Shown: piece by piece, positions 2,619 through 59,560 of the stretch
Layout of the letters: every line of letters begins with the position of its first letter
Numbering within the stretch: the first letter of the stretch is position 1
DNA from: an uncultured Gammaproteobacteria bacterium
Lineage (GTDB): Bacteria > Patescibacteriota > Patescibacteriia > UBA11705 > DATKZF01
Direction of reading: 5' to 3'
DNA: 64,000 nucleotides
Assembly: GCA_964411255.1 (NCBI GenBank)
Contig: CAYPKD010000004.1
Location: 50,147-114,146 of the forward strand
Notes under the pieces: generated by a model
Databases searched by the model: none
What the model was told of the DNA's origin: nothing
What the model saw: only the letters and a program-made list of their open reading frames with translations
Position numbers and translations under genes: made by a program

Positions 2619-4694
2619 TTATCTAAGCCAATCGTCAACCTGATCATCTGTCGGGCTTGGCACAGGTGGCAATGGCGGATGATATTTTATTGAGTCTAAT
2701 TTGTTCAGAATATCCAGCTCTTGATTTAATTCATTATCCCCTATTTTATCCATTTCATTTTGGAAATATTTTGCAAAATCTTCAAAAATGTCTACATAAT
2801 GTTCAGAAACAACAAGCTCCAATGACTGTCGCTCCCATTGGCCAAGCTCATATGGCCATGGCGCAATTAATCCAATTTCCTCAGTTACCCGGAAATCCAT
2901 TACTTCTGGTTCTGGCATTCTGCCTGATGTCATGCCGCTATAATATTCTCTTTCATCAATTATCCAATTTTTTATTAAATCAGCATATCTTGAAAGTAAA
3001 ATACCTTTTTGAATTCCATTGTTTTGATAATAATCAGATTTTTTATTTTCAAAATCAATCTTTTTTTCATCAGAATCTTTTTTTCCAGATCTGTCTTCAT
3101 ACGTTGTCTTTAATACAAGTTTACCATTATCTGATGTTTTTTTAAGTTTTAATAGTACAATTCCACCTTTGGTCTCTCCTTCCTTTGTTTTTGAAGGAAA
3201 CAAAGTATTTACTTTCATAATTTCTCCGGTAGCTTCATCTGCTTCAGGTGATCCATAAACTTTTTCAATATCATAACCGTCAGCTTCTAATATTAAATTT
3301 AGATCAAAGACCAGTGGCGTAACCATAAATTCAAATTCATCATCCATTCTGGTTTTGAATTCATCTTCTGAATGAACAGAATAATAATTTGCTCCTCTGA
3401 TTTTGGTTAAAGATTCAACAAGATCAGTATTAAAATCAACTCCAATTCCAATAAATGTGGTATAAAGGCTATCTTCTGAATTGTTTTCCAGCTGTGAAAA
3501 TAACCCGCCTCTGGTTGTATCTCCCAAGTTTGGCATTGCATCAGTTAAAAATATTATTCTATTCTCATATTCATCAGGATTCAATGCCCCTAGCTCATCA
3601 AAAAGCTCTGTGCCCTCTTTCATCCCAGCTTCCATATTTGTGCCGCCCATTGGTTGAATTTTTAAAATATGATCTTCAATTGCATTCATGTCAGTATTAC
3701 CAACATAATTGAGCGGCTTGGCAAGATATCCATTATCGTCAAAAAGCACCATCCCAAACCTGTCTTCATCATTTAAATGGTCAAGCAAGGCAACAACAGA
3801 TTCATTAGCAATTTCCATTTTAGTTTTGTCTGATTCTTTTAAATTCTCCCTTTCAAGCTGATTGCCAAACTGATCATAATAATATTTATTGAATTGAGAG
3901 CTCATTGATCCTGAAATGTCCAACACAATCACCAGGTTAAGCTTTTTGCGCTCAAAATCGCTTTCCTTTAGGTTTGAATTTAAACCGACTGCTAGATAGT
4001 AATCATCTTTATTTGAAATAGGATCTTTAGAAATTGCATATGAATAGGACGGGCAAAATAATTTTTCGCATTCTTGAGCTTTGCCAGTATCAAAATAATA
4101 GTCATAAAACAGGCCTTCATAAGTTATATCAGTTGGCAATGGCAAAAAATTATTTTTAATATTTTCTCTAAAATTATTAATATCTTTTGCTCCGCCAACA
4201 GCAAAACCAATGCTATCATCACCTGCTCCTCCCATTCCATCAGCAGGAGCCAGACTGGTTTCCAATGCCATATTTTTCATACTTGGTACGCCAGCTTTTT
4301 GAGACAAGCTTCTGAAAAATCCAGCATCTTCTTCTTCCTTAGAATAATCAAATGTCCAGTCATCCACTTTTTCAACCTGAACAAATACTGGTGGTTCGCC
4401 TTGTATATATGTTTTATAAAAATACGGGCCCCCAAAGGCCAGAAGCAAGATAATTGCTGTAGCGCCTGAAAATGCAAATATCCAGCGCCGCAATTTTTTT
4501 AATTGCGCTTTTTTTTCACTGCCCTTTGCTTTTACTTTTAGTTTCTTTTGCAAATCATTTACAAATTGCTTTGATATTACAATGTTTGGCTTGTTTTTGA
4601 GCATTTCTTTTAGCATTTTATTTAATTTTGCCTCATGTTTTTTCATAGTGGGATCGATTTTGTAGATTTCTTTTAGTATTTTGTTGATGTTCAT
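2619..4694 (-). CDS. Membrane-anchored von Willebrand factor A (VWA) domain protein with an anti-sigma-like topology
   Basis: Charged N-terminal region, one TM (WIFAFSGATAIILLLAFGG), then a MIDAS-containing VWA core (LVIVLDISGSMSS). Lies immediately downstream of the ECF sigma gene. Confidence 0.75.
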   Translation of the reverse strand: MNINKILKEIYKIDPTMKKHEAKLNKMLKEMLKNKPNIVISKQFVNDLQKKLKVKAKGSEKKAQLKKLRRWIFAFSGATAIILLLAFGGPYFYKTYIQGEPPVFVQVEKVDDWTFDYSKEEEDAGFFRSLSQKAGVPSMKNMALETSLAPADGMGGAGDDSIGFAVGGAKDINNFRENIKNNFLPLPTDITYEGLFYDYYFDTGKAQECEKLFCPSYSYAISKDPISNKDDYYLAVGLNSNLKESDFERKKLNLVIVLDISGSMSSQFNKYYYDQFGNQLERENLKESDKTKMEIANESVVALLDHLNDEDRFGMVLFDDNGYLAKPLNYVGNTDMNAIEDHILKIQPMGGTNMEAGMKEGTELFDELGALNPDEYENRIIFLTDAMPNLGDTTRGGLFSQLENNSEDSLYTTFIGIGVDFNTDLVESLTKIRGANYYSVHSEDEFKTRMDDEFEFMVTPLVFDLNLILEADGYDIEKVYGSPEADEATGEIMKVNTLFPSKTKEGETKGGIVLLKLKKTSDNGKLVLKTTYEDRSGKKDSDEKKIDFENKKSDYYQNNGIQKGILLSRYADLIKNWIIDEREYYSGMTSGRMPEPEVMDFRVTEEIGLIAPWPYELGQWERQSLELVVSEHYVDIFEDFAKYFQNEMDKIGDNELNQELDILNKLDSIKYHPPLPPVPSPTDDQVDDWLR

Positions 4695-4748
4695 ATAATT
4701 ATTTTTTTTAGAGAAATGCGAAAGGCGATATGCGACGAGTTTATTTTA

Positions 4749-4810
4749 TGCTGCTGCCTGAACTGTCATTCCTGCGTAGGCAGGAATCCAAGTTTAAAAG
4801 TGCAGCAGTA
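4749..4810. repeat. Dyad-symmetric element copy A: TGCTGCTGCC...GTCATTCCTGCgtagGCAGGAAT...GCAGCAGTA
   Basis: Nested inverted repeat, a member of a family also seen at 15344, 22522, 23975 and 41243. It is in inverted orientation relative to the others. Confidence 0.5.
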
Positions 4811-4834
4811 TTTTCGCTTCTTGCATTTCATTAT

Positions 4835-5395
4835 TCACTTTATTAGATTAATAATTTGGCCAAATATTATTATTAATAAAATATTATCTTTTAATTTTTG
4901 TGCAGACCTTGAAAAACTAACTTTACATGCATTTTCTGATTTGCCAATTATTGACGCAATTTCTTTATATGACAGCCCTTCCCATACTCGTAGAATTACA
5001 ATTTCCCTTTGCTCTGGGGTTAATGTTTTTAAATACTTTTTCACTTCTTCTATTTTTAAATTATTACCAATTGTAGTCTCTAAATGATTTGAATCAGCAA
5101 TTGACCAGAAATCTTCAATGTTTGAATTTGTTTTTTGAGTCCGATAATGATCGATAACTGTGTTTCTGGCAATATTAAATAGCCATGTCTGAAATTTTGA
5201 TTTTGAATCATCAAATTTTTCTAAATTATCCAAAGCTTTAAAAAACACTGTACTGGTCAAATCTTCAGCACTTTCTTTGTGCATTGTTTTGTAAAATACA
5301 AATTTGTATATTTTTTCAATGTATTTTTTGTACAATTTATCAAAAGCTTTTGAATTCCCGTCTAAATACTTTTGAATATAGAATGAATCATTCAT
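4835..5395 (-). CDS. ECF-type RNA polymerase sigma factor (sigma-70 family, regions 2 and 4)
   Basis: FQTWLFNIARNTVIDHYR (region 2) and LTPEQREIVILRVWEGLSYKEIASIIGKSENACKVSFSRSAQKL (region 4 HTH). Confidence 0.85.
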   Translation of the reverse strand: MNDSFYIQKYLDGNSKAFDKLYKKYIEKIYKFVFYKTMHKESAEDLTSTVFFKALDNLEKFDDSKSKFQTWLFNIARNTVIDHYRTQKTNSNIEDFWSIADSNHLETTIGNNLKIEEVKKYLKTLTPEQREIVILRVWEGLSYKEIASIIGKSENACKVSFSRSAQKLKDNILLIIIFGQIINLIK

Positions 5396-18944: not shown

Positions 18945-19613
18945 TTATTTTACTTGAGTAACTTTACCTATTTGTCCTTTTTTTTCCAATTTTTTAGCTT
19001 GATCTAGCAGATCTGTATCAGTTTTTTTAATAAATATATTCATTGCTACTTTTAGATCATCTGGTAACTCTTTGATATTCGCATTTACAAGATGAAGATC
19101 TTTATTAACTACTAGGTTTCTAGGCAAATACTTAAAATCATTCCGTTCAATAATTAAAGTCCCATCAACAATTAAATGATTTGGTAATCTTTTAATATCA
19201 TAAACAGCAGGATTGATTCGAAGATCACCTTTTATTTTAAGATGTGGAAGAGGGGCTGATCTGTCAAACTTCTTCTCTATCCAATTTACAGCAGCTTGTC
19301 CTGAAAATCCGACTTCATTATGTACCCAGTCTAATACCTCTTCAGGAAGATTTAAATCAAAACCCTCATCTGACTTTTTTTTCTTTTCTTGTTCTTTTTT
19401 ATCTTTTATCCTTAATAATTCATTTTTATAATCAGTATACAAATTCAAAGCTTCTTGCAATTTCCCAGTTTTTTCCGCAGCTACAGCTTGATCCATTATC
19501 TTTCCGAGAAAATCCTTTTCTTCAGGAGTTAAAGGCACACGCTTAACTTCAGCGCGCTTTGGGCGGGCCATTTTGAGTTGATTTTCTAATGATTGGGGTT
19601 GTTCTTTTGGCAT
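18945..19613 (-). CDS. Paralog family member P7
   Basis: Same N-module. C-terminus has LPNHLIVDGTLIIERNDFKYLPRNLVVNKDLHLVNANIKELPDDLKVAMNIFI repeats. Confidence 0.8.
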   Translation of the reverse strand: MPKEQPQSLENQLKMARPKRAEVKRVPLTPEEKDFLGKIMDQAVAAEKTGKLQEALNLYTDYKNELLRIKDKKEQEKKKKSDEGFDLNLPEEVLDWVHNEVGFSGQAAVNWIEKKFDRSAPLPHLKIKGDLRINPAVYDIKRLPNHLIVDGTLIIERNDFKYLPRNLVVNKDLHLVNANIKELPDDLKVAMNIFIKKTDTDLLDQAKKLEKKGQIGKVTQVK

Positions 19614-19621
19614 AATTAGAG

Positions 19622-21103
19622 CTAAATTTCTATTACTCTTTTTACATATGTATTTTCATCTTTAGCAATGATATACGCCTTATTATCATTAATTGGTACA
19701 ACATGGTAAATTTTATCATAATCCTCACTAACTTTTTCTCTTTTTTCATTTACCATAAACCATTTATCACCTTTTTTTGCTTTAAAAACTAGCGTTCCTT
19801 CAATATCCTCAACAGAACTAATTTTATCATATTCATCACTAATTTTTTCACCTTTTTCATTAATTAAAAATTGTTTTCCATCGTTTTCTGCATAAAAAAT
19901 GATCCTACCTCCAATATCTAATGGATGCCTGACAAAATCATAGTCTTTTCCAATAATTTCACCCTTTTCATTTACAATGTATTTTTTTTTCTTGATTTTA
20001 ACTTGATAAAACATAATTCCTGCAACATTGAAAATGAACTCGATTCCATCATAATCTTCACTAAGTTTTTTGCCTTTTTCATCCACGATAAACCATTTAT
20101 CATCTTTTTTTGCTCCAAACACAAGTTTGCCCCCGATGTTTTTTGGAGTACCAATTTCCTCATAATCTTGTTCAAGTTCTTCCCCTTTTTCATTGACGAT
20201 AAACCATTTATTATCTCTGGTTGCCGAGAAAACAATATTCCCCCCAATATTATCCAGATATGAAATCCATTCATATCCTTTACTGATTTTTTCTCCTTTT
20301 TCATTAAATACAAACCATTCGCTACCCTGTCTGGCATGGAAAAACATTTTATCTTCAAAAAATTGAGGAGGATCAATAGCATTATATTCTTGCCCATATT
20401 TACCTTCTTTTTCATTCACCAGAAACCATTTACTACTATTTTTTTTTGTTTCACAGGCATGAAATACACATTCTCCTTTTACATTCATTAGATTTGAAAC
20501 AGATGAATAATTGCTGCCAATCTTTTCTCCTTTCTCATTTACTACAAAGTATTCATCGTTTTTCATTCCACTAATAAATAACTGCCCGGCTATATCAGTA
20601 ATATGATGTATTTCATCAAACGCTGCTCCTATTCTTTCTCCCTGTTCATTAACTACAAAACTCTTCTTATCCTGTTCAACAGGAAAAAATAACCTGCCTA
20701 GGCTATGCATAGGATTATGAGCAAAGTCATAGCCTTTTCCGATCTTTCTGTCTTGCCCATAAATAACATAAAATTTGCCATCTTTTTTTGCACTAAAAGC
20801 AATTTTACCTTCTATATCTGAAGGCTCATAATATTCTTCGTACTCATCTAAATTTATTGTATATTCCTGTTCCTTTTCTGAAATAGATTCCTTTATCTTT
20901 AACAATTCATTCTTATAGTCTGTATAAAATCCCAAAGCCTTTTCTAATTCTCCAGCCTTTTCCGCAACTACAGCTTTTTCCATAATCTCACCTAAGAATT
21001 CTTTTTCCTCAGGTGTCAACGGTACACGTTTAACCTCAGCGCGCTTTGGACGTGCCATCTTCAATTGACTTTCAAGTGATTGTTCAGTTTGTTCTGCTTT
21101 CAT
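19622..21103 (-). CDS. Paralog family member P8: N-module plus about nine WG-like beta repeats
   Basis: Same N-module, then repeats KWFIVNEKGEELEQDYEEIGTPKNIGGKLVFGAKKDDKWFIVDEKGKKL, reminiscent of KWG/WG repeats. Confidence 0.8.
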   Translation of the reverse strand: MKAEQTEQSLESQLKMARPKRAEVKRVPLTPEEKEFLGEIMEKAVVAEKAGELEKALGFYTDYKNELLKIKESISEKEQEYTINLDEYEEYYEPSDIEGKIAFSAKKDGKFYVIYGQDRKIGKGYDFAHNPMHSLGRLFFPVEQDKKSFVVNEQGERIGAAFDEIHHITDIAGQLFISGMKNDEYFVVNEKGEKIGSNYSSVSNLMNVKGECVFHACETKKNSSKWFLVNEKEGKYGQEYNAIDPPQFFEDKMFFHARQGSEWFVFNEKGEKISKGYEWISYLDNIGGNIVFSATRDNKWFIVNEKGEELEQDYEEIGTPKNIGGKLVFGAKKDDKWFIVDEKGKKLSEDYDGIEFIFNVAGIMFYQVKIKKKKYIVNEKGEIIGKDYDFVRHPLDIGGRIIFYAENDGKQFLINEKGEKISDEYDKISSVEDIEGTLVFKAKKGDKWFMVNEKREKVSEDYDKIYHVVPINDNKAYIIAKDENTYVKRVIEI

Positions 21104-21129
21104 ATTGTTATATGATATATGTTACATGA

Positions 21130-21852
21130 TTAAAGTTTTTCAGGCATAAATGATGCCTTTTCCGTTTTCATTAATTCTTTAATATACTTTTGTGCTTTTT
21201 TATCTTTTTTTATTGACTCTTCAAGATCCTTTTCAATCTCTGGCTTAATGTCCATCTCAAATCGTTCAAATGATTTTTCTGATAAATTTTCATCATTTAA
21301 AATTTCAATAATTTTCAAACTCTCTTCAGGTAAATTAAAAAAATCAAGCGAATTATCCTTTTCAACATTATATTTGTCAATCAATATTCTTCTAAATTTT
21401 CTCAGACCACCTATTTCAGCCATTGAATCTAAAACGAGCTCTTTTTGATTAACTACAAAATTTATTTCTTCCTGCCAATGCTGCGGGTCATCAGCCTTAG
21501 CCTTAGCCTTTGCCATTGTATATCTGCGAATTAAATAATCTAAAATCATTTCTCTTTTATATAATGTTTTAATATTATCAATTATCTCTTCATGTTTTTT
21601 CTCCTTTATACGATTTATTTCTTTTTTCCTCTCTTCCTGCAATTTATCGTTTATTTTCATTAATTCGTTTTTATAATCAGTATACAAATCTAGGGCTTCT
21701 TTTAGTTTCCCCGCTTTCTCTGCCGCCACTGCCTTATCCATTATCTTTCCGATAAATTCCTTTTCTTCTGGCGTTAAGGGCACACGCTTAACCTCACTCC
21801 GCCGCGAGCGGGCCATCTTCAATTGACTTTCAAGTGATTGTTCTGCTTTCAT
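21130..21852 (-). CDS. Paralog family member P9: N-module plus a helical, charged C-terminal domain
   Basis: Same N-module. The C-terminus has no LRR or WG repeats. Confidence 0.75.
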   Translation of the reverse strand: MKAEQSLESQLKMARSRRSEVKRVPLTPEEKEFIGKIMDKAVAAEKAGKLKEALDLYTDYKNELMKINDKLQEERKKEINRIKEKKHEEIIDNIKTLYKREMILDYLIRRYTMAKAKAKADDPQHWQEEINFVVNQKELVLDSMAEIGGLRKFRRILIDKYNVEKDNSLDFFNLPEESLKIIEILNDENLSEKSFERFEMDIKPEIEKDLEESIKKDKKAQKYIKELMKTEKASFMPEKL

Positions 21853-21867
21853 ATTGGTTTGAGCAAG

Positions 21868-22503
21868 TTACTGTTCTTCCAATCCCTTTACTCTCCCTTC
21901 GTTTATGGCTTTTAGTACAGATTCTCTTAATTTAGTTTTTGATGCATTACTAATAACTTTGCAATCAACTCTAATATCATCAGGCAATACTACAATATCA
22001 GTATCCAACAAATTTAAATTTCCTCTAACATGTAAATTATTGGGTAAATCGCCTAATGATGTGCCTTTTAATGAGAATTCTCCATCAATCTCTAAATTTT
22101 CAGGCATTTCAGTACAATTTTTTTTATGTTCAATTTTAATAGGACTATCAACTATAATTTTTGGATATTTACTAAAATCAACATTAGCATCTGTCCATGA
22201 TTCAATATTTGTATCTTCTATAAAAATTGATGAAAGCCATTCAATAAATTTTTGCCTGGTATTTTTTATTTTTTCAATTTGTTCCTTTTCTTCCTTTATT
22301 TTATTTAATTCATTTTTATAATCTGTATAATACCCCAAAGCCTCAGCCAATTTTCCTGCCTTTTCCGCAGCTACAGCTTTATCCATAATCTCACCTAAAA
22401 AAGCCTTTTCTTCTGGAGTTAATGGCACACGCTTAACCTCACTCCGCCGCGGGCGGGCCATTTGGAGTTGATTTTCTAATGATTGTTTTGGCTTTTCTTT
22501 CAT
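21868..22503 (-). CDS. Paralog family member P10; likely start at MKEKPKQSLEN
   Basis: Same N-module. C-terminus has MPENLEIDGEFSLKGTSLGDLPNNLHVRGNLNLLDTDIVVLPDDIRV repeats. Confidence 0.75.
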   Translation of the reverse strand: MKEKPKQSLENQLQMARPRRSEVKRVPLTPEEKAFLGEIMDKAVAAEKAGKLAEALGYYTDYKNELNKIKEEKEQIEKIKNTRQKFIEWLSSIFIEDTNIESWTDANVDFSKYPKIIVDSPIKIEHKKNCTEMPENLEIDGEFSLKGTSLGDLPNNLHVRGNLNLLDTDIVVLPDDIRVDCKVISNASKTKLRESVLKAINEGRVKGLEEQ

Positions 22504-22521
22504 AATAAAGGTAATATATTT

Positions 22522-22616
22522 CCGCTGATTTGGGATATTCAATTCTGTTAAATAGATCTCTCGACTGCGCCCTTCACAAGCTCAGGGCTTCGCTAGAGAT
22601 GACAGCTGGACAGCGG
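22522..22616. repeat. Dyad-symmetric element copy D, followed by a conserved TTGAAT...TATATT promoter-like box at 22489-22520 for P10
   Basis: CCGCTGATTTGGG...ATCTCTCGActgcgccc...gcTAGAGATGACAGCTGGACAGCGG. Confidence 0.5.
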
Positions 22617-24039: not shown

Positions 24040-25080
24040 TTATTTATTAATAAATTCTTTTGCTAAATCAATATAATCAGAATATCCATGCTTTTTCATA
24101 TAATACCACCATTCTACTCCCCAAATATAATATTTTTCAAAACCAGCTTCTTTTGCATATTCAGTATTTTCTATAAATAATTCCGGACTGAATTTTTCAT
24201 ATTGCTCGATTATTGGCACACTGGTAAATGGTACATTAAACCATGGTTCCATTTGAAATTCAGCAACTATTACTTTATCTACCCTTTTTTCTGCCAAATA
24301 AGCTCTTTTTGAATACCAGGCTGGGGGGCTGGCCCAGTGAAAGTCTCCAAGTAAAGGATTAGAAACATCGCGATACATTGTAATACCTAAAATATCAGCA
24401 TATTTTGTAACATTCAGCCAGGTGCTTAATTCTCCAGAATCAGTAAGCATTATTTGTCTATCTGGATCAAGAGAATGAACCAAATCAATTTCATTTACAA
24501 AAATTTCTTTGTTTGGCTTTGGACATCTGCCAAATGGAAATAGCGCCTCATTTTCAACCTGCCACATATTAATAACCTTTTTATCTTTATATCTATTTAC
24601 AACTGTCTCAATCATTTCTAAAAGCTCTTTTTCCTTTGTGTCATACATTAAATCCTGCACCCAGTCTGGTTCATAGCATTCTGGCCAGCGAAGCAATTTT
24701 CTGCCAACAGCTAATACAACCTTGCCATCTCTTTTTTCTACTTCATTGATCATCCAATCTAATTGTTCAAAATTATATTGATTATTTTCAGGCTCAATTT
24801 CATCCCAATAAGCGGAAATCCTGACATCTGTTAATTTCAGTTCATCAAGCATGTTTATAAAAGTATTTTGCCAGTCTAAATGCAATTCCTGGGCAAATCG
24901 TGGGCTAAAAGTAACGCCCCACTCTGGATTATTATTTCTCGGCTTTTCTGGTAGTAATGAATATAAAAAAAAGAAAATTGCCAAAGCAAGTAATATGATC
25001 ATTACTATTATAAATACTATAAATCTAATTTTAATTTTTTGTGGTTTTGGTTTTCTTTTTAGTTTTTTCTTTTTCACCAT
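24040..25080 (-). CDS. Membrane-anchored glycoside hydrolase, clan GH-A (GH5/GH113-like)
   Basis: Basic N-terminus and one TM. INMWQVENEALFPFG contains the conserved NEP-type acid/base motif of clan GH-A. Confidence 0.55.
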   Translation of the reverse strand: MVKKKKLKRKPKPQKIKIRFIVFIIVMIILLALAIFFFLYSLLPEKPRNNNPEWGVTFSPRFAQELHLDWQNTFINMLDELKLTDVRISAYWDEIEPENNQYNFEQLDWMINEVEKRDGKVVLAVGRKLLRWPECYEPDWVQDLMYDTKEKELLEMIETVVNRYKDKKVINMWQVENEALFPFGRCPKPNKEIFVNEIDLVHSLDPDRQIMLTDSGELSTWLNVTKYADILGITMYRDVSNPLLGDFHWASPPAWYSKRAYLAEKRVDKVIVAEFQMEPWFNVPFTSVPIIEQYEKFSPELFIENTEYAKEAGFEKYYIWGVEWWYYMKKHGYSDYIDLAKEFINK

Positions 25081-26011: not shown

Positions 26012-26938
26012 TTATAAATATAATGAAATTAAGTATCCAAGGATTGAAAAGAAAGCAATTGGCGGCAAAGCAGGCATAGGAGAACGTTTCTTTTGTATAG
26101 CAAATAAAATATGAATGGTCATCACGCCAATTAATGAGCCTAGAATTATTAATGCTGCGCTTATTACATTTGTTGAAATAACAGAAGCGGCAAAAATCAT
26201 TGGCAAGGCAATATCACCTGTTCCCAAAAACATAAATCCTTCCTTTGGCTTTACCTTTTTCAAATCAACAAACCAATTATGTGCATGTTCTGGAATGACA
26301 ATAGAAAAAATAATACCCCTAGACAGCAATCCTTTAAACATTTTTACCATTGTCTTTGTTCTATAAACAGCTATATAATCGTAAATTGATAATATTACTA
26401 AAATAATAACCACCCCTAAAGGTTTCAGGTCAAGACCGATTGATGCAGACAATCCTGCTAAACCAAATATTAAAGCAACATTATGAGACCAAATTTGCGG
26501 TACAGTCAATCTTAATATTAATATTATTAAAGCAACAGCCAAAGCTAATTCAAAAGGCATCACAGTCTGAAAAACAGTAAAGGCACCTAATACGATAACA
26601 AAGTAAAATATAAGAATAAAAAATCTTCCACCACGTAAAAATCGTATTGCCAGAACTATAAATAAAGTTGCAATAATAAATGAAGTTAAAAAATAATACC
26701 AAGGAACTGGTTCAGGCGCTACTTCAAATCCCCTTTTAGCAAATAAAAAGACAGCAGTTATGCCTGCAATTATCTGAGCAACTAAAAAAGTTAAGGAATT
26801 TTGCCATAATATTGACCAGCTCATTCTAAAATGAGATTTTTCTTTTTTCTTTTTTACTATTTTTCTAGGTTTTGTCTTTCGGGTTGTCCTTTTTGTTTTT
26901 GTTGCTTTTTTCTTTTTTTGAGTTTTAGTTTTTGGCAT
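26012..26938 (-). CDS. Presenilin / signal-peptide-peptidase-like intramembrane aspartyl protease (A22 family homolog)
   Basis: Lys-rich N-tail, then TMs carrying the three hallmark motifs in order and with canonical spacing: SIYDYIAVY (YD), FLGTGDIALPM (GxGD), SPMPALPPI (PAL). Confidence 0.65.
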   Translation of the reverse strand: MPKTKTQKKKKATKTKRTTRKTKPRKIVKKKKEKSHFRMSWSILWQNSLTFLVAQIIAGITAVFLFAKRGFEVAPEPVPWYYFLTSFIIATLFIVLAIRFLRGGRFFILIFYFVIVLGAFTVFQTVMPFELALAVALIILILRLTVPQIWSHNVALIFGLAGLSASIGLDLKPLGVVIILVILSIYDYIAVYRTKTMVKMFKGLLSRGIIFSIVIPEHAHNWFVDLKKVKPKEGFMFLGTGDIALPMIFAASVISTNVISAALIILGSLIGVMTIHILFAIQKKRSPMPALPPIAFFSILGYLISLYL

Positions 26939-27135: not shown

Positions 27136-27221
27136 ATTAGTTTAATTATAACACATTTTTGCTATATAAGGCACAAAAACTGTGTATTAAATTAAAAAAG
27201 ACAGCAAATGATTACTGTCTA

Positions 27222-30524: not shown

Positions 30525-33476
30525 TTAAACTCTATCAGCTTCTCGCTTGCCGTCTTCAACTTCTCTGGCAGCTTCAGCTTCTAAGCTACCGTTTGGAGAA
30601 TTGATAGCTTCAAGAGCTTTGCCAAATCGAGTACCCTTGAGTAGATGCGTTAAGGCTTTCATACCACCTGCTTCAGTGATAAACCCAAATGCACCAGTAG
30701 CCTGTGGCAGATGCTTTGCCAGCTCTGCCAAAGCAGCCTTGTTACCATGGCCTTCAAGCGCCTCGACCAGTTTTTCAGTAATTGCACGAATTTTGGTCGC
30801 TTCTGCATCAGCAAGAGCCTTGACCAAATCTGCTTCAATTTTAGAAACCTTATCTTTAAATTCAGCGGCTTGATTGCGCCATTCACTTTTAAGAGTAAGG
30901 TCCAGCTTCTCGCTGGCTTCACGATCAACTCTTTCAAGCTCTTTGACTGCATTGGCCATCGCTTGAAGAATCTTAGCATCTTCGTGCTGCTTTGCGCTTC
31001 GCTCATGTGAAAGCTCATGCGCCTGAACCTTGCGTTCATGGTCGAGCTTCTCACTGGCAAGGGCAATCGCATGATTCAGCCCATCTTCATGGCGTTTAAT
31101 ATCATGACTGCTCTGCGCTTTTACAAGCTGAACTTCTTGATCTCTTTTGACCTTGGCAAGTTCAAGCTCAGCTTTTTCAGCTTCCATTTCTTCAACTCGC
31201 TTCTGATGATCCAGAATTACTCTCTGAGCTGTTTCTTCAAGCTGAGTAGTAACAATCTTGCTGTTGGTACTGGCAAGAGTAGTTGCAATCTCTTTATCTG
31301 TATATTGGATATCTAAAACTTCAACCTCATCAACCCTCATATTGTTTTCATTAAACAGTAATCCTGGGCGATGCTTTTGATCTTCAGTTTTTACGCCGAG
31401 AATAGCATCTCTCAAGAATTCTGCCATATTCATATCAACAAGCAGGTCATTCAGAGTTTTTTCTTTTGCCTGAAGGCGTAGACGACTGCGCAGATTATCG
31501 CACATAAATCTTACATAATCTTTTACATTAAACCATTTGGCTCTTTCAGTATCTTTTTCGCCGACAAACTGAACGCCATATTTCAGATCAACCACAATTT
31601 CTACAAATTCTCTTGTCTCCAGCGTTACCTGATCAGTAACAAAGTTACCTGTTGTACGCAAGAAACACGTAGGCAACTGATTTACATCAGTCTTTGGACG
31701 TCCCCTTGAAAGCCTGAGAACCTCAAGAGTTTCATCAAATGCCAGCAGCTCAGTGCATGGGCCTACTACAGGCCGGCGGCTATCGCGGCTGTTAATCAAA
31801 ATTGCCTCATTATTTGGTACTACAACAGAAATAGCCCACGGCGTGTCTACCATTGCATCATCACGCACTTTCTTATGCGGAGCATGCTCTGCAATCCACA
31901 TATTCCATTCACGTCCAGGAACCTTTCGATGAACATGTTTTTGCTTTCGCGGATCCAAAATAAGCTTGACCTTGCCCTTTTCAGTATCAACACTTCCAGT
32001 ATCCACGTCTGCAACGTAAACACCGCTTTTTTGATCCACACCGATTGCCTGGACAAAGACCTGAGAATGGTCATTGCCAATATGAGGCTCTCTGGTCTCA
32101 GGATCAATAACTTCAAAATCATTTGAGGGCATCAGATATGCATCTACATCACTGATGAAGATTTCATCGCCCTTGAAATATTTTTTCTTTTCCAGCACTA
32201 CTGCCTGAGGCAGCTGCTTTTGCAAATCAGAAGCATCAATTTCATCAGCCACCACCCGGCACAGAATGCCACGGTCGCTTCGCAGATGATACATATTATA
32301 AACACGATGCTCAGAACCTTGACGCCTAAATCTGTCATACGGACCAGGAAAAACACGTCCAGGACCCTGCTTGTGTTTTTCATTCCCATCTTCATCTACA
32401 ACCACGCAGAACTGAGTCGGTCCCAGAACCACAGCTTCCCTGACAACTTCCTGGGAAGACTCAGGTACTGACCTCTGCTGGAACACGCTTGCAAGCTTAA
32501 TTACTTCACGCGGCCGCAAAATTTTATCAAGTGCATGTCTTAGCGCTTCATATGGTCTATAATCAGGTAATAATCGCTCATACTGTTTCTGAACATCTTG
32601 GAATACATCGTTAATACCAGCTTTGTTAAAAAACTGAGCAATATTTTCGATCTTAATATCACCCTTTCGAACCCTTCGATAAATAATATCCTTTGCTACG
32701 CCCTGCGATAACTCGTCATCCTGACTGACCGTAATCGATCTTTCAGCCACCACTGTAATGCCAGTTGGAGGAATATAGGTTTCTCGAGTACTCCCAGGAA
32801 TTACAATTCGCTGGCCAACCCTGAAAACAACGGCTGGCGGAAGTTCTTTTGTACTTCCCTTTTTATCAGTCTTTTTCGTTTCCTTCTTTTCTTCAGCTGG
32901 TTCATCTTCGTCTCTTGTAGCAAGTTCAGAAACCTTAAGACTGTCGTCAGCATCTTTGTCAAAAACAGTTTCGTCAACTACAGCCTTTTTGATTTTAGCG
33001 CACTCAACAGTAACATCATAATATGGAGCGTCAGCATCAACCTGTTCAGATTCAACTTCAACCATCAGATATTGGCTGGCAGAAAGATGATGTACTTTTA
33101 CAACCTCAACCTTTTGGCCAGGCCAAACAGGGAAATGCCCAGAAATGACATTTCGCTTTTTGCCATATGCCAAATCTTTCATCTGGCCGCGGCCAGACTT
33201 ATACGAGCCGTTGGGATAGCCATCTTCAAATGATTCTGCTGGATTATGAATTACAGCATATTCATCAGGATTTAGAGTAATAAAACGCTGAATTGCATCT
33301 GTTGCATTATCAACTTCAATAACCTCACACGGCTTTTCCGGATCAGGAATAACGAAAATATCATCATCAGTAGCTTCTAAAGGATCTGGGCCGAAAATCG
33401 GCCTAAATGTACCTTCTTTTTTACTAATCGTCCATACAAATTCACCTTTAATTAAAGGTCTTTTTGTAGATGCCAT
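30525..33476 (-). CDS. Major vault protein (MVP) homolog; start MASTKRPLIKG with SD AGGAGGTG
   Basis: The shoulder region aligns to MVP: VVGPCTELLAFDETLEVLRLSRGRPK...TDQVTLETREFVEIVVDLKYGVQFV...AKWFNVKDYVRFMCDNLRSRLR versus human [27 protein letters not shown]...[26 protein letters not shown]...[22 protein letters not shown]. There is also a long C-terminal coiled coil, as in the cap-helix. GC about 45-50% against about 30% around it. Confidence 0.75.
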   Translation of the reverse strand: MASTKRPLIKGEFVWTISKKEGTFRPIFGPDPLEATDDDIFVIPDPEKPCEVIEVDNATDAIQRFITLNPDEYAVIHNPAESFEDGYPNGSYKSGRGQMKDLAYGKKRNVISGHFPVWPGQKVEVVKVHHLSASQYLMVEVESEQVDADAPYYDVTVECAKIKKAVVDETVFDKDADDSLKVSELATRDEDEPAEEKKETKKTDKKGSTKELPPAVVFRVGQRIVIPGSTRETYIPPTGITVVAERSITVSQDDELSQGVAKDIIYRRVRKGDIKIENIAQFFNKAGINDVFQDVQKQYERLLPDYRPYEALRHALDKILRPREVIKLASVFQQRSVPESSQEVVREAVVLGPTQFCVVVDEDGNEKHKQGPGRVFPGPYDRFRRQGSEHRVYNMYHLRSDRGILCRVVADEIDASDLQKQLPQAVVLEKKKYFKGDEIFISDVDAYLMPSNDFEVIDPETREPHIGNDHSQVFVQAIGVDQKSGVYVADVDTGSVDTEKGKVKLILDPRKQKHVHRKVPGREWNMWIAEHAPHKKVRDDAMVDTPWAISVVVPNNEAILINSRDSRRPVVGPCTELLAFDETLEVLRLSRGRPKTDVNQLPTCFLRTTGNFVTDQVTLETREFVEIVVDLKYGVQFVGEKDTERAKWFNVKDYVRFMCDNLRSRLRLQAKEKTLNDLLVDMNMAEFLRDAILGVKTEDQKHRPGLLFNENNMRVDEVEVLDIQYTDKEIATTLASTNSKIVTTQLEETAQRVILDHQKRVEEMEAEKAELELAKVKRDQEVQLVKAQSSHDIKRHEDGLNHAIALASEKLDHERKVQAHELSHERSAKQHEDAKILQAMANAVKELERVDREASEKLDLTLKSEWRNQAAEFKDKVSKIEADLVKALADAEATKIRAITEKLVEALEGHGNKAALAELAKHLPQATGAFGFITEAGGMKALTHLLKGTRFGKALEAINSPNGSLEAEAAREVEDGKREADRV

Positions 33477-33667
33477 TCCCCACCTCCTTGCATAGGGGGT
33501 CAGACGGGATTGCAAACCAGCTATTTGCTGATTTTCAACGAGCTTTTGGCGTTTTTGCCATAGTAAAAATTACTCCTTTTTATTCTTTTTGTCAAGCTTT
33601 TCTCAAATTATTATATTTGACAATTTTCAGTGCTCATGATATTATTTATTATCCAAAGGAGGCATGA

Positions 33668-38153: not shown

Positions 38154-39238
38154 TAAAAATTAAATACTGGATTTGCTATATATTTTAAAATTGGATTTTC
38201 AAAATCACCCTGATATAAAACTTTTCCCGTAAAATTCCAGACTACTTTTCTTTCTTTGACAATTCGCTTTTTCTGAACTTTCTTTCTCCAATTCCAAACT
38301 AATTTTAAATTCTTAGCGCTAAAAAACCATTTATATACTTTTAATCTTTGCTTAAACCAGCCGTTACATAATGAAAAGCCGAATAAACCCAATTCATATG
38401 AAACAAATGCTGGGAAAAGTAATATTAATGTTGCCCAATGATAACAAACTAAGGTGGTAATCATGCGGTTTCGTTCCATCCAAAAAAACTGCTTTATGCT
38501 TTTTATAAATTCAAATTTATGATAAACCACTGATTTGTAAGCAATCACATTTTTTAAACCATAAAGCTTTGTTTTCCAACCCCATTCCAAATCATCATGG
38601 TACATAAAATACTCTTCAGTAAACTCACCAATCTTTTCAAAAACTTGTTTTGAAACCAGCATTGCTGCGCCGCTGGGATATACAATTTGATCTGATTCTT
38701 TTTCAATATTCAATTCTGAAAATTTTTCCTTATATTTATCAGAAAATCCAAAACCTAAAAAATGCAATGAATTTCCCAGGCTATTTATTAATTCTGGCTG
38801 CTGATGCAGCATTAACCTTGACTGAATTAAACCAATCTTTGGATCTGATTTATATATTTTCAGCGCTTCAATTAAAAAATTCGGATCAACTGTAGTATCC
38901 ATATTTAACATAAAAAAATAATCATAACCCTGCTGTATTGCCCTTTCAATTCCAGCATTATTTGCTGCTCCAAAACCAACATTTTCAGCATTGACCACAA
39001 TGCCAGCCTGGATTCTATCAGTTTCCCCCATTCCAAAATCAAACTGCGGGCACAAATCCATAATATCCTTCCTTGTCTGCTCGCTTGATTCATTATCTAC
39101 AATAAAAATTTTCAAAAGTTCCTTTGGATAATTAACTTTGCTCAAACTGTCAGCGCATTCTTTTAGAAACCGCCTGGCATAATCCTTGTAATTGATTAAT
39201 ATTATTGCAATTTTAAAATTACTATTCATATATAACAT
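38120..39238 (-). CDS. Family 2 glycosyltransferase
   Basis: IAIILINYKDY...FIVDNES GT2 signature. Confidence 0.75.
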   Translation of the reverse strand: MLYMNSNFKIAIILINYKDYARRFLKECADSLSKVNYPKELLKIFIVDNESSEQTRKDIMDLCPQFDFGMGETDRIQAGIVVNAENVGFGAANNAGIERAIQQGYDYFFMLNMDTTVDPNFLIEALKIYKSDPKIGLIQSRLMLHQQPELINSLGNSLHFLGFGFSDKYKEKFSELNIEKESDQIVYPSGAAMLVSKQVFEKIGEFTEEYFMYHDDLEWGWKTKLYGLKNVIAYKSVVYHKFEFIKSIKQFFWMERNRMITTLVCYHWATLILLFPAFVSYELGLFGFSLCNGWFKQRLKVYKWFFSAKNLKLVWNWRKKVQKKRIVKERKVVWNFTGKVLYQGDFENPILKYIANPVFNFYWQVVKRIIFW

Positions 39239-39803
39239 CTAAACAGATCTTGTTAGATTTAGCTAACTCCGCTGCCTCTACTAACTCCTTGTTTTCTCGA
39301 TCAACTATAATATTAAGTGTAACAAATAAATGTGCAGGCAATTTTTTTAATAATTTACACCCTTTAAGATTTAAGTTGCCAATAACTTTTAAATGAGCAG
39401 GTAGTTGTGTAATACTTGAATCATGCACTGTAAGATTCTCTCCTGCTACTCGTATATCTGGCGGCTCACTTAAATTAAAATTATGCGCAGTCCAATGCCA
39501 AGCAGCATCATCTTCATCTGTAATGCCAATTTCATCTCTCACCCATTCATGCAGCATATCAAAATCCCATTGCTCTTTATCCTTTTCTTTTTTTTCTTTA
39601 ATCTTTAACAATTCATTTTTATAATCAGTATACAAATTCAAAGCCTCTTGCAATTTCCCAGTTTTTTCCGCAGCCACAGCTTTGTCCATAATTTCACCCA
39701 GAAATTCCTTTTCTTCTGGAGTCAAAGGCACACGTTTAACCTCATGGCGCCGCGGCCGGGCCATTTTTAATTGGCTTTCTAAAGATTGCGGTTGTTCTGG
39801 CAT
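39222..39803 (-). CDS. Paralog family member P11; likely start at MPEQPQSLES
   Basis: Same N-module. C-terminus has LPAHLKVIGNLNLKGCKLLKKLPAHLFVTLNIIV repeats. Confidence 0.75.
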   Translation of the reverse strand: MPEQPQSLESQLKMARPRRHEVKRVPLTPEEKEFLGEIMDKAVAAEKTGKLQEALNLYTDYKNELLKIKEKKEKDKEQWDFDMLHEWVRDEIGITDEDDAAWHWTAHNFNLSEPPDIRVAGENLTVHDSSITQLPAHLKVIGNLNLKGCKLLKKLPAHLFVTLNIIVDRENKELVEAAELAKSNKICLDVIYE

Positions 39804-39844
39804 ATAGTAATAAGTAACGGGTAATTGGTAATTAGGAATTGATA

Positions 39845-41227
39845 TCAAATCTCAATTATTTTTTTCACAATTTTATCTCCTTCTTCGTCTGTAATTCGAG
39901 CAATAATATATGCTTTATTGTCAGTCAAAGGCTCAAGGCAATAAATTTCATCATACTTTTCACTCACTGCTTTACCTTGTTCATTTGCCACAAACCATGA
40001 TCCATCTCCCTCGTCACTAGCAATAATGGCTATTTCCCCTCCTATATCCTCTATTTGCCCAATAAGATAGTAATCTGCAATTTGTTCTCCTTTTTCATTT
40101 ACCACATACCACTTATCTTTTAAAGCTGTGAAAACAATAGTTCCGTTAATATCTTTGATATTATCAGTACGCTTATATCCCTGATCCCTTCCAATCTCTG
40201 TTCCATCTTCAGTGACTATAAATGAATTCCCCTCTCTGTCAATTGAAGAATAAATAATTTTACCAGCAACCTCTAGTGGTTTTCCAATCCCTCCATATTT
40301 TTCCCCAAACTCTCTTCCGTTTTCATCTACAATTATCCATCTTCTACCCTTTTTTGCCTGATAAACTAATTTTCCTCCTATTTCCATCGGACTTTCAACA
40401 TAAAGATAAGCCTCTCCAAATTCTTCACCATCTTCATTGGCAATAATCCATTTTTTTCCTTTTTTACCGCGAAAAGTAATTTTATTATTAATAAATCTTA
40501 AGTCTTTTACATCATCATATTCTTTTCCTAATTCCTTTCCATCCTCATTAGCAATAATCCATCTTTCACCCTGCTTGGCTAAAAAAAATATTTTACCCTT
40601 AATAAACTCAGGTAAATCAACTGAATCATATTGTTCACCAATTTTTTTGCCTTTTTCGGTATATATAAAAGCCTTACCGTCTTTTTTTGCTATAAAAACT
40701 ATTTGGCCCCCTAAATCTTCAGGACATACAACATTATCAAATTCTCCACCAACCTTTTTCCCTTTTTCATTAATTATAAATTCTTTATTGCCTTTTCTAG
40801 CATTAAATGCTGCCCGTCCATTAATATTTTTTAGGTTCCACGTTAAATCATATTCTTCTCCGATTTGTTCTCCTTTTTCATTAATTACTAAATGTTTTTC
40901 ATTCTTATCCGTTACTTCTATTACTGGCTTTCCATTAATATCTACTGGATCTGCATGATCAATATAATCTTTTAAGTCAATAGTGAATTCTGATCCTTTT
41001 TCAGCTAAAGATTCTTTAATTCGCAGCAATTCATTTTTATATTCTGTATACAAATTCAAGGCTTCCTGCAACTTTCCGGCCTTTTCCGCAGCCACAGCCT
41101 TATCCATAATCTCACCCAGAAAATCCTTTTCTTCTGGCGTCAGCGGAACACGCTTAACCTCATGGCGCCGCGGCCGGGCCATTTTGAGTTGGGATTCGAG
41201 GGATTGTTTTGGTTTTTCTTTTGGCAT
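39845..41227 (-). CDS. Paralog family member P12: N-module plus WG-like beta repeats
   Basis: Same N-module. Repeats KWIIANEDGKELGKEYDDVKDLRFINNKITFRGKKGKKWIIANEDGEEFG. Confidence 0.8.
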   Translation of the reverse strand: MPKEKPKQSLESQLKMARPRRHEVKRVPLTPEEKDFLGEIMDKAVAAEKAGKLQEALNLYTEYKNELLRIKESLAEKGSEFTIDLKDYIDHADPVDINGKPVIEVTDKNEKHLVINEKGEQIGEEYDLTWNLKNINGRAAFNARKGNKEFIINEKGKKVGGEFDNVVCPEDLGGQIVFIAKKDGKAFIYTEKGKKIGEQYDSVDLPEFIKGKIFFLAKQGERWIIANEDGKELGKEYDDVKDLRFINNKITFRGKKGKKWIIANEDGEEFGEAYLYVESPMEIGGKLVYQAKKGRRWIIVDENGREFGEKYGGIGKPLEVAGKIIYSSIDREGNSFIVTEDGTEIGRDQGYKRTDNIKDINGTIVFTALKDKWYVVNEKGEQIADYYLIGQIEDIGGEIAIIASDEGDGSWFVANEQGKAVSEKYDEIYCLEPLTDNKAYIIARITDEEGDKIVKKIIEI

Positions 41228-59113: not shown

Positions 59114-59560
59114 TTATTTTTTCATTTTAAAAAACAACCAATTCTTATCCCTGAACTTTATCAATGCATACTTCCCCTTTAATTTTCTGCCTTTTATTTC
59201 AATAATATATTTTTTTTCTTTTTTCTCATCTAACATTTTGTATCTTCCTCTGTCCCAAACTTTTACCTCACCTGCGCCATACTCTCCTTTTGGAATCGTT
59301 CCCTTCCAATATGCATAATCAAGCGGATGATCTTCAGTTTGGACTGCTAATCTTTTTAATCCCACCTTTTTCGGTGGTTTTTTTGGAATGGCAAAAGATT
59401 TTAAAACACCGTCTTTTTCCAATCTTAAATCCCAATGCAAATTTCTGGCATGATGCTCCTGAATTGAATAAATATCTCCAGTTTTTGACTTTTTTACCAC
59501 TGGTTTTGGTTCAGGAGTTTTAGTAAATTTTCTTTTCTTTTTATATTGTGTTAAAGACAT
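59114..59560 (-). CDS. Stand-alone LigD-type 3'-phosphoesterase (PE) domain protein
   Basis: YSIQEHHARNLHWDLRLEKDGVLKSFAIPKKPP...RLAVQTEDHPLDYAYWKGTIPKGEYGAGEVKVWDRGRY matches the LigD PE domain. Confidence 0.8.
   Translation of the reverse strand: MSLTQYKKKRKFTKTPEPKPVVKKSKTGDIYSIQEHHARNLHWDLRLEKDGVLKSFAIPKKPPKKVGLKRLAVQTEDHPLDYAYWKGTIPKGEYGAGEVKVWDRGRYKMLDEKKEKKYIIEIKGRKLKGKYALIKFRDKNWLFFKMKK

Follow-up and report, generated by a model that had tools for sequence, protein, structure and literature searches.

Homologues of presenilin, the intramembrane protease known from Alzheimer's research, are, to our knowledge, usually described as eukaryotic and archaeal proteins, and the sole prokaryotic model enzyme is the euryarchaeal PSH. 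In the eukaryotic enzymes, the presenilin-type membrane orientation is paired with type I (N-out) substrates; for the prokaryotic ones this pairing is an extrapolation. Signal-peptide peptidases (SPPs) have an inverted orientation and type II substrates. Type IV prepilin peptidases, FlaK included (A24), are polytopic aspartyl peptidases that are common in bacteria and archaea and share the GxGD motif; their Asp residues lie near the cytoplasmic face, they have no PAL motif and their number of helices is different. The PSH of Methanoculleus marisnigri (MCMJR1; PDB 4HYC, 4HYG, 4Y6K) works without cofactors and without autoproteolysis (PMC2947513). No prokaryotic member of the family has a known physiological substrate (PMC4343526, PMC9263693).

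The window (the whole stretch of DNA that was analysed, 64,000 nucleotides) contains a gene that very probably encodes a presenilin-type intramembrane protease. Membership in MEROPS A22/Pfam PF06550, the presenilin fold and catalytic competence are all assigned with high confidence on the strength of the sequence and of a structural model, and the protein would be expected to cleave within the membrane. The family and the fold are known. What is new is a further member, from an unstudied bacterial branch and with an unusually long polybasic tail.

The gene is a complete ORF of the presenilin/PSH family of GxGD intramembrane aspartyl proteases (26012-26938, minus strand; 308 aa plus stop, ATG start). 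The JGI gene call on the source contig has the same boundaries, and an identical protein (P0001) is encoded by a 365-kb metagenome contig and by several shorter ones. The initial annotation, made from the sequence alone, had read the product as an A22 protease from three motifs in canonical order, spaced about 50 aa apart. These are found in the order given: SIYDYIAVY (residues 184-192), LGTGDIALPM (238-247) and MPALPPI (288-294). The spacing also holds, with 55 residues from D187 to D242 and 47 from D242 to P289. The YD motif (residues 186-187; 26378-26383, minus strand) includes the putative catalytic Asp187 in transmembrane helix (TM) 6, which is aligned to D162 of PSH, and is invariant in 78 homologues. 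The GTGD (GxGD) motif (residues 239-242; 26213-26224, minus strand) includes the putative catalytic Asp242 at the start of TM7, which is aligned to D220 of PSH. The PAL motif, part of PALPP (residues 289-291; 26066-26074, minus strand), is placed immediately before TM9 by the sequence and by the AlphaFold2 (AF2) model. The 78 homologues, whose identity to the query is 23-69%, have Y186, D187, G239, G241, D242 and P292 without exception, and at least 90% of them have L291; in the 19 closest, A290, L291, P292 and P293 do not vary. The motifs cannot be put down to chance, because they are invariant across homologues and because the whole protein scores far above family thresholds. The invariance of the catalytic residues argues that catalysis is probably retained.

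The family assignment rests on several profiles and searches. PF06550 ("SPP", signal-peptide peptidase/presenilin aspartyl protease) is matched over profile positions 30-278 of 283 with 67.3 bits (gathering cut-off 23.9; E=2e-18). Up to E<=1, the only other Pfam match is a sub-threshold one to TRAP-gamma; PF04258 and the A24 profiles were not found. A phmmer search against all PDB chains retrieved the archaeal PSH 4HYC (E=1.2e-14), with D187 and D242 paired with D162 and D220 and with G239-T-G-D242 aligned to G217-M-G-D220; chain residues 13-289 of PSH were rebuilt from the alignment to fix this numbering. A profile built from the 78 homologues matches PSH over its full length (E=1.5e-54) and both the N-terminal and the C-terminal halves of human presenilin-1 (E=2.8e-10). 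No SPP chain of the PDB was found at E<=0.01, either by the single-sequence phmmer search or with the profile. NF041679 (NCBIfam IMP_arch_presen, the archaeal PSH equivalog) is matched over positions 5-280 of 281 with 79.7 bits (E=2.6e-22); its cut-off of 125 is not reached. Judged by these alignments, the window protease is a full-length homologue of archaeal PSH that is too diverged to be a strict equivalog of the characterised enzyme. NCBI records already give the name "presenilin family intramembrane aspartyl protease" to relatives that are 61-65% identical, from Patescibacteria and from a MAG labelled Bipolaricaulota.

The AF2 model, computed from the 78-sequence alignment, has a mean pLDDT of 90.4, a pTM of 0.86 and nine long helices. 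The nine-helix TM protease core spans residues 41-307 (26018-26818, minus strand) according to the model, Foldseek and the hydropathy profile. Its helices are TM1 (residues 41-68), TM2 (80-100), TM3 (105-124), TM4 (129-145), TM5 (149-170), TM6 (173-194), TM7 (240-253), TM8 (258-281) and TM9 (291-307). The initial annotation expected the three motifs in TM6, TM7 and TM9. The model agrees: D187 is predicted within TM6, D242 falls at the beginning of TM7, and PAL directly precedes TM9. The TM6-TM7 loop (residues 195-239; 26222-26356, minus strand) is short and basic (8 K/R), with a short helix and predicted beta-strands at 212-216 and 235-239. Against the PDB, the Foldseek matches of probability 1.00 are exclusively PSH, PSEN1 and SPPL2a; all further matches have a probability below 0.1. 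The A22 reading is thus borne out by sequence (PF06550, 4HYC and presenilin-1) as well as by fold (PSH, PSEN1 and SPPL2a), and the match to A22 and PSH that had been named as its check was obtained by Pfam, phmmer, profile and Foldseek alike.

PSH is the best fold match and is aligned over its full length (Foldseek E ~5e-7; TM-score 0.72-0.74, normalised to PSH). Both proteins have about 300 aa, nine TM helices, YD in TM6, GxGD in TM7, a PAL-type motif before TM9 and a short TM6-7 loop. They differ in sequence (only ~23-24% identity), in the third motif (AGLPP in PSH, canonical PALPP in the window protease), in the bacterial host and in the 40-aa polybasic N-terminal tail of the window protease, which also belongs to a separate CPR/DPANN clade that a long branch parts from MCMJR1. 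Human presenilin-1, the catalytic subunit of gamma-secretase, has the same fold (Foldseek TM-score ~0.6), the same catalytic motifs and the predicted N-in orientation, and both proteins have a non-conserved hydrophilic cytosolic N-terminal tail. Presenilin-1 is longer (467 versus 308 aa), the identity is ~15-17%, and the window protease is devoid of the long cytosolic TM6-7 loop in which presenilin-1 undergoes endoproteolysis. No partner resembling nicastrin, APH-1 or PEN-2 is evident in the gene neighbourhood. SPP/SPPL2a (A22B; PDB 9K92) likewise has YD, GxGD and PAL in the fold of a GxGD intramembrane aspartyl protease (Foldseek E=5e-5).

The window protease comes from a Patescibacteria (CPR) bacterium. 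Genes for QueA (461 bits, equivalog cut-off 324), Fmt and an ECF sigma-70 factor show that the window is bacterial; its GC content is ~32%, and the closest genome match with shared synteny is a Patescibacteria MAG. A22 proteases had been called uncommon in bacteria, which stands for classical bacteria; it does not stand for Patescibacteria/CPR, where relatives are widespread and already named by NCBI. Confirmed relatives were found in at least 534 species genomes, mostly CPR with some DPANN archaea; this count is a lower bound, since one genome per GTDB species was scanned with a single peptide pattern. By the labels in their record titles, the best 80 of the 534 relatives comprise 61 CPR/Patescibacteria, 7 DPANN-type archaea, 7 unclassified "bacterium" and 5 other bacterial labels. 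The CPR names among these 80 include Parcubacteria, Azam-, Falkow-, Staskawicz-, Yanofsky-, Buchanan- and Uhrbacteria and "Saccharibacteria". An exhaustive single-sequence phmmer search of 1.84 billion cluster representatives (50% identity) gave 937 clusters at E<=1e-3, 414 of which at E<=1e-10. In a neighbour-joining (NJ) tree of the loci proteins, which is unbootstrapped and biased in sampling because it took in the best 80 matches to a CPR profile, the seven archaeal copies group into a single clade that lies within the CPR sequences, and all are far from euryarchaeal PSH. This topology of aligned sequences is compatible with exchange between CPR and DPANN, and is only suggestive of it. Within the collection of papers searched, presenilin was not found together with CPR or Patescibacteria, and was found with DPANN as an incidental mention in one paper only.

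Five loci of the tree come from MAGs labelled Gammaproteobacteria, Bacillota or Binatia and yet cluster inside CPR sequences (L010, L047, L084, L070, L072). Mislabelled or contaminated bins are likely here, rather than true occurrence in those phyla.

The tail is the Lys/Arg/Thr-rich, acid-poor stretch of residues 1-40 (26819-26938, minus strand), predicted to be disordered and cytoplasmic from its composition and from the AF2 model, in which it has a pLDDT of 52-75 and no secondary structure. The initial annotation had reported an unusual K/R-rich N-terminal extension of 35 aa. The extension is present, and its length before TM1 is 38-40 residues. With 20 K/R and 1 acidic residue (binomial P=5.6e-8 against a K+R background of 13.8% in the window proteome), it is unusual as a compositional outlier in the family; it is not a distinct domain but a variable low-complexity trait of one subclade. 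Among the 78 homologues, strongly basic acid-free tails are restricted to the closest subclade (P0002-P0008, 58-72% identical), with 10-26 aa, 4-12 K/R and recurrent KTK-type repeats; the tail of the window protease is the longest (40 aa). In the remaining relatives, TM1 is preceded by 0-24 residues of mixed charge or, in two cases, by a longer tail (38 and 59 residues) without a strongly basic character. The DNA of the tail is 62% A, with 13 AAA and 3 AAG codons interspersed with ACA/ACT and a longest A-run of 7. This sequence fits expansion and contraction of an A-rich simple sequence in one subclade.

A K-rich beginning is also found in other membrane or basic proteins of the window, so that the tail in part reflects a habit of the genome. 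One of them is a GH42/GH10/GH5-like glycoside hydrolase (24040-25080, minus strand), encoded two genes downstream of the protease and anchored as a type II protein; it has a polybasic N-terminus (MVKKKKLKRKPKPQK; 11 K/R in the first 30 residues) ahead of its one TM anchor, which matches the basic-tail-then-TM design of the window protease. The tail is most likely a disordered cytoplasmic polybasic extension that would reinforce N-in insertion or contact anionic lipid head groups, rather than a separate functional domain. A bolder proposal is that the presenilin homologues of Patescibacteria and DPANN archaea make up a separate clade of their own, with transfer between the two domains, and that the subclade of the window gene evolved its polybasic Lys/Thr tail as a functional module. 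As a whole this proposal is considered unlikely. Under it, the tail would be more than compositional drift, for example a tether to anionic lipids or nucleic acid, or a gate on substrate entry.

Translation of the tail itself may be questioned. The protease could be correctly identified while the tail is an annotation artefact, translation beginning at Met39 and the A-rich stretch upstream being a 5' leader that is open by chance. Met39 lies just before TM1, three close homologues also carry a Met beside TM1, and A-rich, T-poor DNA seldom makes stop codons. No Shine-Dalgarno sequence precedes M1, which is in keeping with a start at Met39; none precedes M39 either, and such sequences are too sparse in the window to discriminate, with only ~9 of 75 ORFs having a strong one. 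Against this stands the fact that four of the seven closest homologues (P0002, P0003, P0004 and P0007) have no Met near TM1 and yet have open, basic, acid-free tails, which therefore must be translated. In the window, the annotated frame of the tail is the only one free of stops, which both other frames contain. The 96%-identical sibling P0080 has the same tail length, without any indel in the A-runs, and its substitution rate is alike in the tail (1/40) and in the rest of the protein (10/268). Independent gene calls use M1. A start at Met39 is thus unlikely, and the tail is treated below as part of the protease.

Orientation was predicted from the charge bias of the loops in the AF2 model, where 32 K+R lie on the side of the N-terminus and 2 on the opposite side (12 versus 2 without the tail). 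By the positive-inside rule, this asymmetry predicts that the N-terminus and the TM6-TM7 and TM8-TM9 loops are cytoplasmic. The C-terminus would be outside, as in presenilin and PSH and opposite to SPP; the positive-inside rule is the sole basis of this prediction. A function of the SPP type would demand the reverse: in the opposite orientation, the enzyme would clear signal-peptide remnants (type II, N-in) after cleavage by signal peptidase. The name of the Pfam family (SPP), the presence of SPPL2a among the Foldseek matches, the plausibility of signal-peptide clearance as a housekeeping need and a gene without a specific operon partner all speak in its favour. The charge bias, however, puts the N-terminus and the TM6-7 loop in the cytoplasm with or without the tail, and the sequence and profile matches are to PSH and presenilin-1, with the SPP chains absent at the threshold given above. 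An SPP-type function is decidedly unlikely, and the presenilin/PSH orientation is retained.

Because this orientation is of the presenilin type, the substrates of the window protease should, by analogy with the eukaryotic enzymes, be single-pass type I (N-out) membrane stubs with short ectodomains. As a pure speculation, one candidate class would be the C-terminal anchor remnants left by sortase-type processing. In the proposed mechanism, the protein would be a stand-alone, cofactor-independent intramembrane aspartyl protease with a nine-TM presenilin fold. Asp187 (YD, TM6) and Asp242 (GxGD, TM7) would be opposed within the bilayer and activate a water molecule, which would hydrolyse the TM helix of a substrate entering laterally; the PAL motif before TM9 would shape the active site. 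The 40-residue Lys/Thr/Arg tail would be a cytoplasmic extension that arose by expansion of an A-rich simple sequence in one subclade. Action without cofactors or autoproteolysis may be expected by analogy, because MCMJR1 acts in this way (PMC2947513).

The mechanism presupposes catalysis. A protein with the presenilin fold could instead be a channel, a scaffold or a pseudoprotease, and a likeness between this fold and that of ClC channels has been noted (PMC4918416). No direct evidence for such a role was found, and it is very improbable here: both Asp residues, the glycines of GxGD and the PAL motif are invariant or nearly so in 78 diverged homologues (23-69% identity), which indicates purifying selection on catalysis. 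That a type IV prepilin peptidase (A24) was misread as presenilin-like is hardly conceivable, even though GxGD is common to both families and CPR bacteria carry type IV pili and A24 peptidases; this identity is refuted by the Pfam results (nothing beyond PF06550 and the sub-threshold TRAP-gamma match), by the presence of YD and PAL, by the AF2 model (nine predicted TM helices, both Asp inside helices) and by Foldseek, with no FlaK or PilD structure among the matches. The window protease is accordingly read as a presenilin/PSH-type enzyme throughout.

The local gene order is PRPP-synthetase-like, protease, EamA, GH-like, AhpC, QueA, and is shared only with the closest relative (L005). Downstream of the protease, the EamA-family transporter gene and then the membrane-anchored GH-like gene follow after gaps of 38 bp and 2 bp. 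A terminator-like hairpin (27199-27220, minus strand) lies directly after the upstream PRPP-synthetase-like gene; it comes from a consensus scan whose number of sites is not above the shuffled expectation. The hairpin weakly suggests that a separate transcription unit begins with the protease gene and possibly includes the EamA and GH-like genes that follow it. The promoter scan of the window likewise gave no more sites than shuffled sequence.

For the survey of neighbours, ORFs were called in 80 related loci and in the window and clustered by all-against-all BLASTP. No neighbour is universal across 77 loci; the commonest ones occur in at most 27 of the 77 and are absent from the window. Of the genes around the window protease, the PRPP-synthetase-like one upstream is alone in being found repeatedly (6-8 loci). 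The order shared with L005 looks like recent synteny and not functional linkage. No pointer to a substrate, a pathway or an operon partner was found in the 77 loci and the window, and a neighbourhood without partner genes fits a stand-alone housekeeping protease. The clustering had placed 95 proteins of the protease cluster in 77 loci, as if some loci held second copies; these were rejected, since direct BLASTP gives a maximum of one copy per locus and the extras are due to transitive clustering of multi-TM proteins.

Other loci of the window are reported as observations in their own right. A gene pair on the minus strand (2619-5395) consists of the ECF sigma-70 factor gene (4835-5395) and an adjoining gene (2619-4694), whose 691-aa product has a single TM segment and a weak resemblance to a sortase-target/vWA protein. 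The two may form a sigma/anti-sigma module, which would make them a candidate target of regulated proteolysis within the membrane. At 59114-59560 (minus strand), the window encodes an apparently stand-alone LigD 3'-phosphoesterase domain protein with a K-rich N-terminus (172 bits, domain cut-off 144). A 996-aa ORF (30525-33515, minus strand) lies in a segment with a GC content of 40%, versus ~32% elsewhere, and matches Pfam MVP_shoulder (1.4e-23) and Vault_3; it is aligned to residues ~378-800 of eukaryotic Major Vault Protein (E ~5e-22). It is a vault-protein homologue of a CPR bacterium and may have been acquired horizontally; none of the 80 related loci has a homologue of it.

Twelve paralogous genes, all on the minus strand (12510-16265, 18284-22542 and 39222-41227), share a near-identical N-terminal module of ~75 aa (QSLESQLKMARPKRAEVKRVPLTPEEKEFLGEIMDKAVAAEKAGEL...YTDYKNELLKIKE). 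Their C-termini diverge strongly and contain LRR-like "LP.NL.V.G.L" repeats; among the twelve are two long members of 460 and 493 aa. The members tested have no Pfam, NCBIfam or useful PHROG match, and the PHROGs scans of the proteins described as side observations gave nothing informative. In its syntenic region, L005 lacks the array of paralogues between AhpC and QueA. The set looks like a recently expanded polymorphic family.

For genome annotation the window protease is a routine case, as standard pipelines already name such proteins correctly. Its gene is one example of a well-populated bacterial presenilin branch, found in ultra-small CPR bacteria and intermixed with DPANN archaea. A bacterial presenilin homologue could be another simple model for the mechanism of gamma-secretase, and it could mark gene exchange between two groups of episymbionts, CPR and DPANN.
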